DNA of 64,000 nt from Cyanobacteria bacterium P01_D01_bin.156 (GCA_039024555.1 JBCCQQ010000002.1:1-64000); one strand, 5' to 3'. Counted from the stretch's first letter, positions 33,001 to 42,000 are shown. Numbers: made by a program.

Positions 33001-36000
33001 TCGACCACATCGATATCCCCCAGGTTGCCGCCTGCTTCGGCAATAGCCTGGGTCACTTTGGCCAACATGCCAGCCTGATTGGGGACATGCATACGGATGG
33101 TTAAACTGTAACTAGGGTTGGGTGTCAGGCTGACCATTGTCAAAAACCTCAGATAGTGGGAAGAAATAATGTAGTAAAAAAATGTTAAGCCCTGTTGGCC
33201 TAATCCTGCGACCCTTGAAACCATCTAGATAAAAAGCATTCAAAGAATAATTCCTTGGCAACCGTCTAGACATTGACCGCAATGGCCCCATAGGTTGATC
33301 AATCCTGTCCATTCCTCAAGTTCTATTTCCCAAACCCTATTTCCCTTTCACCATGCCAAGTCTCTACGCTGAAATCGAAATCAACGCGACCGCTGCCCAG
33401 GTTTGGGATGCTTTGGTACGCAAAGAAGACTGGCGTTATTGGAATACGTTTTTATACGACTGCGACCCGCGCTCTAATTTTATGTTGGGCCGGGAAGTAT
33501 TTTTGGCCATGCAGCGGATTGAGGGGGATGTGGACACGGAATTTCAGCCGGTGGTAACCACATTACGACCGGGTAGCTGTTTGCGGTGGGTCTCAAAAAT
33601 TCCAGGATTAAAAACGGAACATTCTTTTGAAATGCAGGAAATTGCGCCGGGACGTACCCGTTATCTGCATCGAGATATTTTTATGGGCCCGCTGTCCGGT
33701 GTGTTTCTGCCCTTTATTCGGGACGATGAACGTGAGGGGCTACGACGCATGGCCTATCAGCTAAAGCGCTACGTGGAGAGCGGTGGCAAGCCGCAGCGAG
33801 ATCCTTACAGCCGTAATGCCTATGGCGATCCCTACGGTGGGCGTGGCTATGATGATCGGCGCTATGGCGGCTATCAAGACCGGAGCTATTATCCGGAACA
33901 AGGTAGCTACCAAGACCAAGGGGACCCGAGATATCAGGATCAAGGCTATGGACGTGGTTATAGCGATGAGGGCTATTCCGACCGACGGTATCAGGATCAG
34001 CAAGGCTATTCGGAACGTGGCTATTCGGACCAGGGTGGCGACTACCGGGATCAAGGAGATCAGCGCTATCGCGGGCAGGGCTATGATAACCAGGGTTATG
34101 GAGAGCAAAGGCGCGGTGGTCAGCAAGGGCGCGACTATGGTCAGCAAGGGCGTGACTATAGCGATAACGACTATCCCGATCGACGGTATCGCGACGACAG
34201 GGACTATCGTGATGACAGATGGTAATGCAAGGCTTCTACAAACAAGATCTCGCCCATGTTCACGATATTGGTTATGGCGATCATGCGCGTAAGGCAGCTG
34301 CGGAGATCTGCAAAATCCTTGCCAATAACAACATTTTAGATAGGCTGATTGTTGAATTAGGCTGTGGCAGCGGTATCTCTGCTCTAGAATTTGCTAGGCG
34401 TGGCTATAAGATACTCGGCATTGATATTTCAAGTGCCATGGTTGATTTAGCTAGAGCTAGGGTGCCTCAGGCAGAATTTTATAAGGCTTCGTTGTTTAAG
34501 ATAGATTTACCACCTTGTGCAGTCGTAACCGCCATTGGTGAATGTCTTAATTATTTATTTGATCCAGATAATCAAGACGATCGTTTACAACAACTGTTTG
34601 AGCGTATCTATCAAGCGTTGATGCCCGGTGGCCTGTTTATTTTTGATGTGGCAGAACCTGGGTTGTTAGAAAAAGGCGATGAACAACATTTTACCGAAGG
34701 TCATGACTGGCTAGTGTTAGTAGAGAAAGAAGAGAACTTAGAGCAATCTACGCTTACTCGTCGGATCATCACTCTGCGCAAGATAGGTGAACAGTATCGA
34801 CGGGATGATGAGGTTCACCATATTCGTCTCTACCGCTCGACAGACCTTGCTCACAAGCTACGACAGGCAGGCTTTAAAATACAAAGCATGCGTAGCTATG
34901 GGGACTATCAATTACCAAGAGCCCATGCAGCGTTTGTGGCTCGTAAGCCCTGAGTTTCTGGGTTTGAGACTAGAGTGATTGACCTTCATAGGCCATTTGC
35001 CAAAATTCTTTTTCTAGGTTGGCAACAGTGATAAATGCTTTCTCTGCCTCTGTTTGAGTGTTGTTATCTGCAGTGGCCAGAACGCTATTGGCTTGTTGTT
35101 CTAGCTGTTGAACGTAGGCAGTAAATGCAGCATTGCCCCACCGGTCTGCAAATTCGGTATAGGGTTCTGGCATGGGGCTATGGCTCTGCCAGCCTTGGTT
35201 ATAGGCGAGCTCAATCGCCCAAAAACCGGTGGCCTGAACCGGATAAGACTGCTGTGCTAAATCTTGCATAAACTTGCAGTAGGTTTGGCAAGTTTGCTGT
35301 AGCGGCTGGTTTAAGTCTAGATTGCGGTCTTTGGCTTTCGCATGAAACCATGCTAGCTCTTCTTTGAGTACGGTAATACCGCCCAGAATGAGATCAAAAT
35401 GCTCGACAGGAGCGGCCTGCAATAAACTAGCCGCCAAACGGGTGAATTCAACAACAAAATGATAATCCTGCACTAGCCAGGTGTTGAACTGGTGAGGCAA
35501 TATTGTTCCTTTTTGGCACTGTTCCAAGAAAGGATGTTTGATGGCGGTTTGCCATTGCTCAGGGTATTGGCGAAGGAGTTGTTGACAAATCAGGGGCATA
35601 GACAGAGGGGCATGAGGTTTTGCTCGCTCCAGTTTACGTTGTTAGGGCTATGGTTGGAATTCTACCGTTTGCATAGCACTAGCCATAGGGAATCAATGCT
35701 CAGCTAGCCACGCAATGATATCGTGCATTACCTGCTGTCGGTCTAAATCATTGTGGGGTTCGTGATAGCTGCCGGGGTAGATTTTTAAGGTTTTGTCCAC
35801 TGAGATGCGTTCAAAAATCTCTTGGCTACCGCAGACGTCATTGACCTTGTCGGCGCTGCCGTGAATTAGCAGAATGGGCAGCTGAAGTTGACTGATTGTT
35901 TTGCGCACATTCGCGATCGCAACCAAACATTCTGTTCCCCAGCGCACGGTGGCCACCGAATGGGTGAGCGGATCGGTCTGCATTTGATTCACAATGGCCG

Positions 36001-39000: not shown

Positions 39001-42000
39001 AATCATCCGGCAATTTTTCATAGATCCAACCGATCAATCCCATAAGACAAGCTACTGCGGTAAACCGCATGCCATTGTTGTGTACAAGTCCGGTAAGTAC
39101 CGGCAACAGAATCAGGGCAAAGGTACGGCCCTGTTTGCGATCGCGAATCACGGTAAACGCGATGAGGCTTAGCAACCAACCTAAACCACCCACCAGCGGG
39201 TCGTAGACCAAAAACCCCCAGCTAACGTTGGTCACGCCCGCTCCACGGCTGAGCCAGTAGCGGCCCATAACCAGCGCAATCAAAGCGACTACGGGCCAGA
39301 TAGGATCGGCTGGAAAAAAATGCCGGGCTAGGAGGACTGCACCGATGCCCTTAAAGGCTTCCAATAGCACTGCCCCAATGCCAACCGGGGTGCCGCCGTG
39401 GTAAAAGGCTGCAGATACGCCTACATTGCCAGTGCCGATTTGCGATAGGCGTTTGCCCGTGGCCAGCTGTACCCACCAGCCGGTTAGGGGTACCCCCCCC
39501 AACACCGGACAAATAAGAAAAATGAGCAGTGCGCCCCACACCTGAACCATGGGTGACTCCGGTAGCAATCTTCTCTATCTGACCATTGACCGTTACCGTT
39601 ATGGGCAATCCTTAAGCTCAGCGTTAGAACCACAGATTGGAATTAAACGAGTTTTCACACCTTTCAAGAGGCGAGATGTGCAAACTAAAATTATTTCGAG
39701 GAACCGTACATTCAGAGCTATTCAAGTGCTCAGAAATCCTCACACATCAATCGATCTGTATCGCTAAGATCGCCGTATGCTAAATAATCTTGGAGCCACT
39801 GACAGCCTTGTTTCATCAGCTCTGCCAAATTGAGATTCCATAACCGAATGTGACCATCAGCTCCAGCAGAGGCTAAATATTCCCCAGTACTGTCGAATGA
39901 GGCCTGCCAGATAATGCCTCGATGCCCGGTGAAGGTGTGGAGCAACTCACCATTGGAGACTTGCCAAAAACGGATGGTGCCGTCATCGCTGGTGGAGGCA
40001 ACTACAGTGCCTCCCAGACCAAAGGAGACACTGCGTACCCAGTCGTGATGACCCCGTAGGGTGTGTACTAGCTCCCCGTTATGCCACAGACGGACGGTAT
40101 TATCGCTGCCAGCGGAGGCGATAGTTTTACTATTGGGAGAGACCGCCACGGCCCATACGCTACCGGTATGGCCTCGGAAAACGTGGTGCGTTTGGCTAGG
40201 AGATGCGGCGGTGATGCCCGTCCACTGGCGCAGGGTACCGTCTTCACTACCGGAAACCAAATAACGGCCATCGGGGCTAAAGGCAACGGACCAAATGGTA
40301 CCTTCATGACCCCGCAGTTGAGCTATGGGATGCCCGTCGGTGTTCCATAGGCGAAGGTTGCGATCGCTCCCTGCCGAAGCTAGATAAGTTCCGTCCGGGC
40401 TAAACTTGACCGACCAAACCGCATTTTGATGGTTTTCAAAGGTCTGTAACAGCTCACCATTGGGGGTCCAGAGCTTAACCGTATGGTCGGCACTAGCAGA
40501 GGCCAGCATCTGACCATCGGCCCGCCAATCCACACTGTAAACACTACTATTGTGACCCTGCACCGTCTTTCTCAAACTGTGCTGAGACGTCCAAAAGCGC
40601 AAGCTTTGATCGGCACCAACCGAAACCAATCCGGCCCCCTGGGGGTGCCAGCACACATCCCAAACAATCCCTTGGTGCCCTCTCAGTATCGGCGCTTTAG
40701 GGGCGTCTAGTTGCCAAAGGCGCACCGTATTGTCGTCGCTGGTGGAAACAACCTGAGTTCCCTGGGGATGGATGGCTACACTTAAAACGCTGCTGCGATG
40801 TCCCTTCAAGTCATCCAAAATCTGTCCCTGCAGATCCCACACATAGATATTGCGATCGTCGCTAGCAGAGATGATGCGTTTGCCATCAGGACTAAAACAT
40901 ACATCCCTGACCCAGTTTTGGTGTCCCTCAAAACACTGCAATAAGTCCCCGTCTAGGTTCCATTGTTTGATCAGGTGATCGTCCCCACCGGAAAGAATAT
41001 GTTGACCATCAGGGCTAAAGACGGCTTGCAGCACCCAGCCTGCATGGCTGCTCATAGTTTGGAGTAACTCTCCTGCCGTATTCCAAAGACAGAGGGTGCC
41101 ATCCTCAGCAGCGGAGACCAAATGCTCGCCATCGGCGCTAAACGCCACCGAACGGACCCAGTCTATGTGGCCTTTCAGAGTTTTTAGCCACTGGCCATCC
41201 TGGCTCCATAGTTGAATCGTGTGATCATTGCTGGCGGAAGCAAGCAGTCGCTGGATGGGACTAAACGCAATGCTATTGACTGAACTGCTGTGGCCGCTCA
41301 GGACATGCAAACATTCCCCCGACATCTGCCATAGCCGAATGGTGGCATCATCTCCGGCAGAACCCAGAAGCTGACTGTCGTGGCTAAAGGCCACATCTAG
41401 GACGCTGCCCTGGTGTCCGGTAAAGACCTGTAATAACTTCCCCTGAGTACTCCAGAGTCGTACAGTGCCATCATCACTGGCAGAGGCAAGATAGTGACCA
41501 TTGGGGCTAAATCGAGCCGAAAGCACCCAGTCCTGATGACCAGAAATACGAATTTTCTCACGCACACCGTGGACCGCTTGCCACAGACAAAACAACAGCT
41601 GATTTTGTAAATAGCTAGATACCGGCGTCAATCGGCTTTGCTGTGCGCCTTTGAGGGCCTCTAGTAAGGCCCCTAACCCGTCAGCCGACAACAGTAAAGC
41701 TTGAGACACTGACGCCAGGGCCTGCATCTCTGCAATTTCTGCGCGATGGCGATCTTCAGTGGCTTGGGCTAAGGCTAGGGCTTGTTCCTGTAGAGCGGTG
41801 CGCAGCTGGGTCTCAGTTTGTTTACGCCGCCGCCGCTCAGCTTGGAGGACAGTCATCAGACCCGGCATATCCTGTTGTTTCACTAAGTCGGCTAAGTAAT
41901 CATGGGCAAGCTGATATCGCACCCGCCCCCCCACTTCCGGACTTTCAAATAACAAACCGGATGCGGCTAAGATTTCTAATACCAGCGTAAGCCGGGCTGG

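Follow-up and report, generated by a model that had tools for sequence, protein, structure and literature searches.

A cyanobacterial protein that fuses a PlsY-fold membrane domain to an Rph/PigC-type dikinase is kept or lost together with a previously unstudied, His-rich second ferrochelatase, and the two are probably linked in function. Depending on the sample, roughly two thirds or four fifths of the cyanobacterial genomes (97/151 and 169/201) carry the fusion, wrongly labeled as PlsY or PEP synthase. Its pairing with the ferrochelatase hints at a pathway for the modification of porphyrin-type pigments, not for the recycling of fatty acids. The pathway that we infer, with a probability of about 0.45, metallates a tetrapyrrole (of the porphyrin, haem-like or chlorin kind), phosphorylates it and so activates it, and sends it through the PlsY-like site.

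The window analyzed here is a stretch of 64,000 nucleotides from Cyanobacteria bacterium P01_D01_bin.156 (GCA_039024555.1), in which the following features are relevant.

36614..39550, minus strand: fusion gene, 978 aa plus stop, ATG start (ORF reading and Pfam)
38981..39550, minus strand: PlsY-fold membrane domain, residues 1-190, with a remodeled site (PF02660; Z 18.2 to 5xj5; TM 0.75)
38150..38920, minus strand: ATP-grasp domain, about residues 211-467 (PF01326; alignments to RPH)
36956..38149, minus strand: central Rph-type acceptor domain, about residues 468-865 (Foldseek to 5hv1/5fbs; profile alignments)
36617..36955, minus strand: C-terminal swivelling phosphohistidine domain, H937 codon at 36740-36742 (PF00391)
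35693..36589, minus strand: alpha/beta hydrolase (Hydrolase_4), 298 aa, 24 nt downstream of the fusion (Pfam)

As the survey's finding had it, the membrane domain and the dikinase are encoded by a single 978-aa ORF on the minus strand (39550-36614). The Pfam matches it quoted (G3P_acyltransf 13-173, PPDK_N 261-467 and PEP-utilizers 904-973) were reproduced, the canonical PlsY (G000:C53) and PlsX (G000:C2:124575-125534) are genes apart from the fusion, and no published study of the protein was found in the literature searched. A TTG codon in the same frame precedes the ATG by 18 nt, and a promoter scan gave a result at chance level. The AlphaFold model of the whole fusion reached a pLDDT of 89.8 and a pTM of 0.77.

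The class yielded strong matches to the fusion (best E value of 1e-86 or better) in 97/151 genomes, in line with the presence in most Cyanobacteriia claimed before, though lower than the earlier 18 of 20; the remaining 54 genomes gave E values of 4.7e-19 or worse, or no match. Across these 151 genomes, 96 have both the fusion and the ferrochelatase paralogue, 51 neither, 1 the fusion only and 3 the paralogue only (agreement in 147/151, phi of 0.94). Four control genes from the window, none of them matched in prevalence, gave a phi with the fusion of 0.29 (hydrolase), 0.48 (cyclase), 0.27 (YiaAB) and 0.31 (malic enzyme), the last being too common (138/151) to serve as a good control. In a second sample, both genes occurred in 161 genomes, neither in 29, the fusion only in 8 and the paralogue only in 3 (agreement in 190/201, phi of 0.81). 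A shared niche or regulon may also account for these values, because both samples include non-independent kin and have at least 10 genomes in common, and the controls were those four genes only. Genome size alone does not explain the co-occurrence: the paralogue is absent from 11 of the 14 fusion-less genomes of at least 3.9 Mb and present in all 6 fusion-bearing genomes of at most 3.5 Mb. Members of the four mixed families (f4, f14, f15 and f18) have or lack both genes, with the exception of G056. Another order yielded the fusion in 0/48 genomes and a paralogue-like gene in 4/48, all 47-48% identical, and the two examined among them form a separate branch.

In 7 of the 9 genomes with a fusion and no paralogue, the fusion is decayed, with 7-40 changes among 120 columns that are otherwise invariant; leaving out each of 64 reference genes in turn gave 0-3 misses. 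In the other two (G056 and G375) the fusion is intact and the paralogue was not found, and a close paralogue occurs in G011 and G270, where no fusion was found. The two genes are unlinked in the window's genome, as in most others; they lie within 1 kb of each other in G066, G129 and G006, which represent three families and three arrangements, where about 0.14 such cases would be expected. In G006 the adjacent paralogue is broken by an in-frame stop. Save for the paralogue in these three, no conserved neighbor of the cyanobacterial fusion extended past close kin among 75 loci.

In the window's genome the paralogue (G000:C96:9454-10728) lies outside the window and is additional to the canonical HemH. 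It falls below the TIGR00109 equivalog cut-off (82.6 against 124.6), which the canonical HemH passes with 415. Its nearest solved relatives are coproporphyrin ferrochelatases, and the catalytic ferrochelatase His and Glu are present in 38/38 paralogue rows aligned to Listeria CpfC. Fusion-bearing cyanobacteria as a rule also carry a ferrochelatase of the His-rich, CAB-less subset that has been called "not previously identified or studied" (PMC8529089).

Named genomes were scanned with a single query, which gave only five close loci and therefore no orthologue from a named model organism. Synpcc7942_0781, alr4616, alr3397, alr3147, all0635 and all3751 are candidate orthologues at most. As leads only, and presuming that orthology, alr4616 (labeled hemH) is up 8.6-fold at low CO2 (PMC7699953) and is also up under peroxide in a pkn22 mutant (PMC4518582), and alr3147 and alr3397 are down on FurA depletion (PMC4788461).

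The membrane domain had been described as four hydrophobic segments; it is the entire seven-helix PlsY fold. Its model (pLDDT of 93) aligns to 5xj5 over 184 residues (Z of 18.2, rmsd of 2.8 Å; runner-up Z of 6.9), and Foldseek gave a TM of 0.75 to PlsY; a search of the ESM Atlas with residues 1-200 returned no match above 0.82. Eight positions are invariant in 65/65 homologues (T40, N42, E64, R97, G105, T107, W111 and D183). Around the acyl-phosphate hole, G105, T107 and N42 are among them, S46 replaces Thr41 in 58/65, and His92 has become Arg in 65/65, a position at which substitutions lowered the activity of PlsY. The glycerol-3-phosphate (G3P) clamp, on the other hand, is lost. T40 occupies the Ser35 position in 65/65, the Arg45 position is Y, L, I, Q or V and never R, the Lys104 position is A in 62 and G in 3, and the Asn180 position, mapped by eye past the HMM alignment, is D in 61/65. 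His177 is indispensable in PlsY (PMC5700162); there is no His in query residues 175-186, the column matched to it by eye is a variable K/R/Q, and there is no H-x-x-N motif. Judged by its sequence, the fusion is not a glycerol-3-phosphate acyltransferase, because the clamp is gone. Sequence and model together indicate that the domain keeps the phosphate hole and a conserved polar pocket and would be unable to clamp G3P.

The remainder of the protein has the order of an Rph-type dikinase: ATP-grasp, central domain and then C-terminal His domain, with Listeria RPH as its best solved relative. K223, R267, S/T286 and H937, all present in 65/65 homologues, correspond to RPH K22, R117, T136 and H825, so that the residues of the first half-reaction are complete. 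The central domain is conserved to a level similar to that of the other domains (82/398 columns at ≥95%). It has K or R at the RPH Arg666 position in 65/65 and, in these homologues, G, A or N at Glu667 and A, T or S at Lys670, and since the last two RPH residues are absent, its second phosphotransfer in cyanobacteria is putative.

Relatives of the dikinase from outside the cyanobacteria are homologous to the fusion over 763 columns. Among 69 such loci, a PlsY-like gene was found in 50, a MacB/FtsX permease in 21 and, within 5 kb, a chelatase-like gene in 15; many of the 54 without a chelatase are short. SOUL haem-binding, PucC, UbiA with B12 radical SAM, and photolyase genes appeared at one locus each. 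The chelatase-like protein shares only about 19% identity with the paralogue and is only weakly nearer to it than to canonical HemH (hhalign 91% against 61%; support of 81 in a quick-search tree), and by eye it has His at the ferrochelatase Glu position. Its gene lies by the PlsY-like subtype nearest the cyanobacterial one at 1 locus and by the other subtype at 8. No fused chelatase-dikinase scored among proteins of 822-2345 aa, which is weak evidence. A resemblance of a neighboring SDR to chlorophyll b reductase was supported by no named family, and the Staygreen family was not found among 105 scanned neighbors. E. coli MacAB-TolC is a protoporphyrin exporter, according to PMC4263509; MacB/Lol-type transporters, SDR fusions and hydrolases at these loci fit a lipid substrate just as well. 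These relatives also matter for the "PlsY" genes described from Asgard archaea: one is listed for Thorarchaeota SMTZ1-83 (PMC6431249), and a protein named from that genome falls in the present dikinase family.

In the tetrapyrrole pathway, the fusion would carry out two linked steps and the His-rich, CAB-less ferrochelatase a third, and from the genomes we infer that all three activities were selected together. The paralogue would put metal into, or take metal out of, the tetrapyrrole. With the ATP-grasp residues and the swivelling His intact, ATP should yield phospho-His937, AMP and Pi, by analogy with RPH. The central domain would then phosphorylate the tetrapyrrole, most simply turning a propionate into an acyl-phosphate; its counterparts in RPH and PigC/HapC bind flat hydrophobic ring systems. 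The PlsY-like domain would accept the acyl-phosphate and move its acyl moiety to a membrane acceptor that carries no phosphate, giving a lipid-linked or otherwise quenched metallo-tetrapyrrole, with a likely role in the handling of photosensitizing pigments. This exact chemistry, propionate acyl-phosphate followed by transfer to a membrane acceptor, is rather unlikely to be right in every step. It is doubtful, if slightly less so, that such a pathway operates in most cyanobacteria and in a related form in sediment Chloroflexota, Thermotogota and Asgard archaea, with a chelatase setting the metal, the dikinase making an acyl-phosphate and the PlsY fold coupling pigment to membrane lipid, all without prenyl-diphosphate or CoA chemistry.

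The survey's finding had instead proposed lipid recycling with a neighboring lipase. Part of that interpretation holds, namely that an ATP-dependent phosphotransferase with an intact His relay is joined to a PlsY fold that appears to keep its acyl-phosphate side. Transfer to G3P lacks support, since Arg45 and Lys104 are replaced in all homologues and the H-x-x-N motif is missing. The hydrolase adjoins the fusion in 10/75 loci, all of them in the family of the window or in named close relatives (these include the window itself and two loci apparently from one genome); flanks were limited to 1.5 kb in 30 of the 75, and among 40 with about 6 kb it was adjacent once. With a strong homologue in just 29/97 fusion genomes, besides the low phi, we reject it as a functional partner, and it is probably not part of the fusion's system. 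A version in which the dikinase turns free fatty acid into acyl-phosphate and the PlsY-like domain passes it to a non-G3P acceptor, for lipid recycling or a new acylated lipid, while the ferrochelatase shares a niche or stress regulon, is unlikely. The apparently retained acyl-phosphate side (G105, T107, R97 for His92 and S46 for Thr41) speaks for it, as do the second non-cyanobacterial subtype, with His92 and the Gly loop in 38/38, and the transporters, SDRs and hydrolases mentioned above. A fatty acid may be compatible with the data, yet the genome already has PlsX and PlsY, and the best-tracking partner is left unexplained, together with the decayed orphan fusions and the three adjacencies.

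The same co-occurrence data would fit a system in which the three genes are linked but act on something other than a tetrapyrrole, the chelatase-fold protein loading Ni, Co, Zn or Cu onto a novel acylated ligand that the dikinase and PlsY-like domains produce. The His-rich tail (31/37 paralogue rows) and the HupE/UreJ (3), CbiQ (2) and TonB receptor (2) genes in the 69 non-cyanobacterial loci point in this direction; however, the kinship of the paralogue to coproporphyrin ferrochelatases, whose His and Glu it keeps, makes this improbable.

The fusion could also catalyze a single reaction at the membrane, as a lipid or prenol kinase: with D182/D183 binding Mg, phospho-His937 would dock where the G3P side has opened and phosphorylate a hydroxyl in the acyl groove (e.g., of phytol or monoacylglycerol). 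The phosphate hole, the invariant Asp in place of the basic clamp and the missing Glu667 and Lys670 are consistent with it. Against this quite improbable arrangement, the central domain shows the same degree of conservation as the others, its Arg-Glu is present in 57-60/62 non-cyanobacterial rows, and the two halves are often separate proteins. Paralogues of 591-594 aa without the central domain (L038, L039 and P0130) have decayed motif 1 and RSS motifs, for which reason they were rejected as evidence for the PlsY fold as phospho-acceptor and do not show the central domain to be dispensable.

That the PlsY-like domain is a dead anchor tethering an Rph-like small-molecule kinase to the membrane, the fallback of the earlier interpretation, is very unlikely. 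Catalytic PlsY residues are lost, and some representatives (P0150) retain the dikinase motifs with motif 1 deleted. Nevertheless, the eight invariant polar or Gly site residues and the apparently preserved acyl-phosphate side argue for more than an anchor, and L042-L044 and G291 keep the domain, with intact motifs, as a gene of its own; the intact dikinase of G291 has no such domain. Finally, the database labels, PEP synthase or glycerol-3-phosphate acyltransferase, are used in the source records, and the window's genome yielded no canonical PEP synthase, but they are hardly credible given the scores far under the NCBIfam cut-offs (TIGR01418 152 against 740; TIGR00023 not among the matches listed), the His domain that is C-terminal and not central as in PpsA, the lack of any match to a pyruvate-binding barrel family and the lost G3P clamp; RPH does not use pyruvate either, according to PMC4844700.

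The tie between fusion and paralogue gives both orphan enzymes a shared and cheap test. Should the substrate be a tetrapyrrole, a branch would be added to the known pigment metabolism of oxygenic phototrophs, and a PlsY fold would for the first time be shown to act outside the start of phospholipid synthesis.

Compared with known systems, the paralogue is about 25% identical to canonical HemH, and the published account of the CAB-less subset (PMC8529089) describes no link to a kinase. The fusion shares with RPH-Lm (PDB 5FBS and 5HV1; NF041857) and Rph-like small-molecule dikinases its three domains in the same order and its best sequence and fold match, but it differs in the extra N-terminal membrane domain, in an identity of ~18-19% in the fold match, and in a score of 220 bits against the Rph cut-off of 999, which together with the loss of Glu667 and Lys670 sets it apart from Rph proper. 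The prodiginine ligases PigC/HapC/RedH (NF052631 and NF052632) have the same dikinase architecture, and PigC/HapC phosphorylate a pyrrole aldehyde and so activate it for ligation to a second partner, according to PMC13534948; in contrast, the fusion scores 197 bits against 1300 and 171 against 1350, no pig/red cluster genes were seen around its loci, and it is joined to a PlsY fold. With PlsY itself (Aquifex, PDB 5XJ5-5XJ9; PF02660) it has in common the whole fold, Asn37, Gly105 and a hydroxyl at Ser35 and mostly at Thr41, whereas the replaced Arg45/Lys104, the Arg at His92, the lost His177/Asn180 motif and the new invariant E64, W111 and D183 distinguish a domain that branches apart from canonical PlsY, this genome's own included.

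The PlsY-like domain and the complete dikinase that the survey's finding had described within one gene were confirmed by an intact reading frame, Pfam domains and predicted folds, as was the presence of ordinary PlsX and PlsY elsewhere in the genome, both located as separate genes. The fusion and its neighbor lie in the window as follows.

39550-36614, minus strand, intact fusion ORF of 978 aa
24 nt downstream of the fusion, Hydrolase_4 (lipase-like) gene of 298 aa

Pfam placed G3P_acyltransf at residues 13-173, PPDK_N at 261-467 and PEP-utilizers at 904-973, and all NCBIfam scores were far below cut-off (Rph, 220/999; PigC, 197/1300; PEP synthase, 152/740). 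AlphaFold models were confident for the whole protein (pLDDT 89.8), with the Listeria rifampin phosphotransferase (RPH) as best structural match, and for the N-domain (pLDDT 93.1), which matched only Aquifex PlsY (Z 18.2, with an rmsd of 2.8 Å over 184 residues; next match, Z 6.9). Profile searches of the six frames of the genome revealed no canonical PEP synthase or PPDK, their only matches being the fusion, a 602-residue frame of pyruvate kinase size and PlsY; the PEP-utilizers domain was confined to the fusion and that 602-residue frame (C2:104931-105146). A protein search with the fusion gave 2743 matches among 7999 scored candidates, and the PlsY family occurred together with dikinase families in 119 of 120 among the matches listed.

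Of 151 genomes of the class, 97 gave strong matches, set off from the rest by a clean gap (E 1e-86 versus 5e-19); this agrees with the reported presence in most sampled Cyanobacteriia, though the share is lower. The fusion neighborhood is not conserved across 75 loci. The lipase-like gene is indeed beside the fusion in the window, but it adjoins it in only 10 of the 75 loci, all close kin, and a strong homologue exists in just 29 of the 97 fusion genomes. In three loci of one family (L042 to L044), the PlsY-like domain and the dikinase are adjacent genes. Directly upstream of the fusion are genes for an AAA/STAND-like ATPase (441 aa) and then an nSTAND1 and WD40 protein (1598 aa), at 39730-45872 on the minus strand and kept in close relatives, and the hydrolase is followed by a TenA-like gene (34970-35599, minus strand) kept in the closest relatives only. 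A gene that by eye we take to be psbA is found just upstream of the fusion in L015, L017, L018, L019 and L034. There is also a conserved fusion paralogue of 591-594 aa that has no central domain (L038:6332-8104, L039:5907-7682 and P0130) and in which PlsY motif 1 and the RSS motif are decayed; further decayed forms of 340-960 aa occur among the representatives. Elsewhere in the window, an amino-acid-permease-like membrane domain (weak, E 0.002) is fused to a histidine kinase (26347-28863, plus strand), and a polyketide-cyclase/START domain (33353-34225, plus strand) carries a 145-residue Gly/Tyr/Asp/Gln/Arg-rich repeat tail absent from most homologues. The malic enzyme and YiaAB genes at 31289-33137 have second copies (92% and 88% identical, respectively) on contig C121 of the same genome, so either this segment has been duplicated or the assembly contains a second strain.

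Active-site residues of PlsY, as given in PMC5700162, were mapped onto the fusion by profile alignment to 5xj5 and tallied across 65 homologues of full length (the 75 loci gave 66 ORFs of at least 880 aa, from which one duplicate was removed; the window's own was excluded). On the glycerol-3-phosphate (G3P) side, the Ser35 position is Thr in 65/65, the Arg45 position is Arg in 0/65 and the Lys104 position is Ala in 62 and Gly in 3; the His177/Asn180 motif becomes a variable residue plus Asp-Asp, a mapping made by eye beyond the end of the HMM alignment, and D183 is present in all 65. On the acyl-phosphate side, the Gly105 and Asn37 equivalents are invariant, the Thr41 position is Ser in 58 and the His92 position is Arg in all; E64, T107 and W111 are likewise invariant. 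Since the G3P-side residues are replaced while some acyl-phosphate-side residues and others of its own are invariant, the pocket has been rebuilt, not decayed, and is under selection of its own, which argues against the fallback reading of this domain as a mere membrane anchor. A quick tree of 52 rows set the cyanobacterial domain in a separate branch (support 99) apart from canonical PlsY, with one non-cyanobacterial subtype nearest to it (support 85).

In the dikinase part, RPH residues K22, R117, T136 and H825 (PMC4844700) correspond to K223, R267, S/T286 and H937, all kept in the 65 homologues, and judging from these residues the ATP-to-His relay is intact. RPH Arg666 corresponds to K/R774, the Glu667 position is G, A or N and that of Lys670 is A, T or S; because these last two are replaced, the site of the second half-reaction is unlike that of RPH, although the central domain is conserved to the same degree as the other domains.

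When 1.84 billion representatives were searched by profile, a non-cyanobacterial dikinase branch emerged, homologous to the fusion over 763 columns and keeping Arg and Glu in 60/62 and 58/62 rows, respectively. By source names, its fused members come from Thermotogota and Asgard and its unfused ones from Anaerolineae, Dehalococcoidales, Chloroflexota and Thorarchaeota. Among 69 metagenome loci drawn from the best 80 of 602 confirmed stretches, a PlsY-like gene was present in 50 (fused in 5, within 3 kb in 47) and in 27 of the 29 with flanks of 1.5 kb or more in each direction, a MacB/FtsX permease in 21, and a ferrochelatase/CbiX-like gene within 5 kb in 15; SOUL, PucC, UbiA with a B12 radical SAM enzyme, and photolyase were found in one locus each. 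None of the 48 classed PlsY-like neighbors in these loci had canonical motif 1 or H-x-x-N-x-x-R, 6 of 54 rows having been omitted as short or more canonical-looking. In two loci an SDR is fused to the dikinase N terminus (L089:1496-4753 and L141:1205-4489), and in L084 and L115 this SDR has a gene to itself, upstream. In L123, a single operon holds two different PlsY-like subtypes, one of them fused to the dikinase, together with a chelatase-like gene. L132 has SOUL haem-binding, CIA30, chelatase-like, dikinase, PlsY-like, TonB receptor and fasciclin genes in a single run, preceded by an ORF that looks TspO-like by eye, with no family match.

With these chelatase-like neighbors in mind, three cyanobacterial loci drew attention: in L032, L064 and L066 (gaps of 128, 939 and 505 nt) the fusion lies beside a ferrochelatase paralogue, which the genome of the window carries in addition to canonical HemH.

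G000:C96:9454-10728, ferrochelatase paralogue in the genome of the window

The paralogue scores below the HemH cut-off, has a His-rich tail in 31/37 rows and keeps the ferrochelatase catalytic His and Glu in 38/38. This His-rich, CAB-less ferrochelatase subset is described in PMC8529089 as hitherto neither identified nor studied. In the non-cyanobacterial loci, the chelatase-like protein shares just ~19% identity with the paralogue, to which its kinship is weakly supported, and its gene is mostly beside the other PlsY-like subtype, not the one nearest the cyanobacterial domain. In L066, adjoining the fusion in G006, the paralogue contains an in-frame TAA (5405-5407), from a pseudogene or a sequencing error. 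At L177, L178 and L181, a side branch without the His tail, found in genomes with and without the fusion, precedes a gene for a conserved membrane protein of 243 aa that looks ZIP-like by eye.

The fusion and the paralogue are retained jointly. In the same 151 genomes (paralogue gap, E 5e-84 versus 3e-24), both were present in 96, neither in 51, the fusion only in one (G056) and the paralogue only in three (G011, G140 and G150), giving a phi of 0.94, versus 0.27-0.48 for four control genes from the window; related genomes are non-independent in these counts and the controls few. The genes of G140 and G150 belong to a 47%-identical side branch in a different context, and searching the discordant and the mixed genomes again from other queries left the pattern unchanged. 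In a second sample, 201 genomes from a single large order with at least 10 in common with the first, the corresponding counts were 161, 29, 8 and 3 (phi 0.81), and in a third order the fusion was found in 0/48 and paralogue-like genes, all 47-48% identical, in 4/48. Of the nine fusion-only genes, seven departed from 64 reference genes at 7-40 of the 120 columns that do not vary among these (leave-one-out misses, 0-3). The substitutions often fell at K223, R267 or E273, and one of the seven genes was truncated as well; the paralogue-bearing G290 had one miss. In G291, likewise paralogue-bearing, the functions are split: the dikinase is intact and has no membrane domain, and the PlsY-like motifs are intact on another gene, whose ATP-grasp is decayed.

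G291, contigs C13 and C47 (L227 and L229), split genes

Four genomes with apparently sound genes go against the pattern, G056 and G375, where the fusion is intact and no paralogue was found, and G011 and G270, where a close paralogue is present and no fusion was found. The three adjacencies, each in a different family, stand against ~0.14 expected from a rough calculation. Linkage between the two is our main reading, with a probability of roughly 0.8.

Dikinase and PlsY-like domain frequently occur as separate proteins, and neither is lost after a split, which suggests two steps linked by a phosphorylated intermediate. With a porphyrin-chelatase homologue as partner, and with RPH and PigC/HapC using the central domain on flat ring systems (for PigC/HapC, PMC13534948), a tetrapyrrole would be the simplest substrate, a tentative choice to which we give slightly less than even odds. 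The dikinase might convert a tetrapyrrole propionate to an acyl-phosphate, which the PlsY pocket might hand on to an acceptor that is not phosphorylated, although this exact chemistry is unlikely. The survey had proposed phosphorylation of a lipid-derived group and its transfer to the PlsY-like domain; this is partly supported, the relay and a probable linked step surviving, while the partner shifts from the lipase to the paralogue and the candidate substrate from a lipid to a tetrapyrrole. The non-cyanobacterial context (SOUL, PucC, UbiA, photolyase and MacB-type exporters, a type that has a protoporphyrin-expelling member in Escherichia coli according to PMC4263509) agrees with a tetrapyrrole but does not prove it, and a lipid pathway would suit the transporters, SDR fusions and hydrolases of those loci equally. 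The Ni/Co transport neighbors in those loci and the His tail of the paralogue also allow a non-porphyrin metal ligand.

Searches of the main text of open-access papers found no study of the fusion, as had been claimed, or of the paralogue's function. Genes treated in PMC13125312, PMC4518582, PMC7699953 and PMC4788461 are at most candidate orthologues, and PMC6431249 lists a PlsY gene in Thorarchaeota SMTZ1-83. The two proteins are variants of known enzyme kinds, perhaps in a new pathway. The fusion would work like the Rph/PigC dikinases, but on the features tested it falls outside each of Rph, PigC and PpsA, and likewise outside canonical PlsY, with which it has the whole fold in common.
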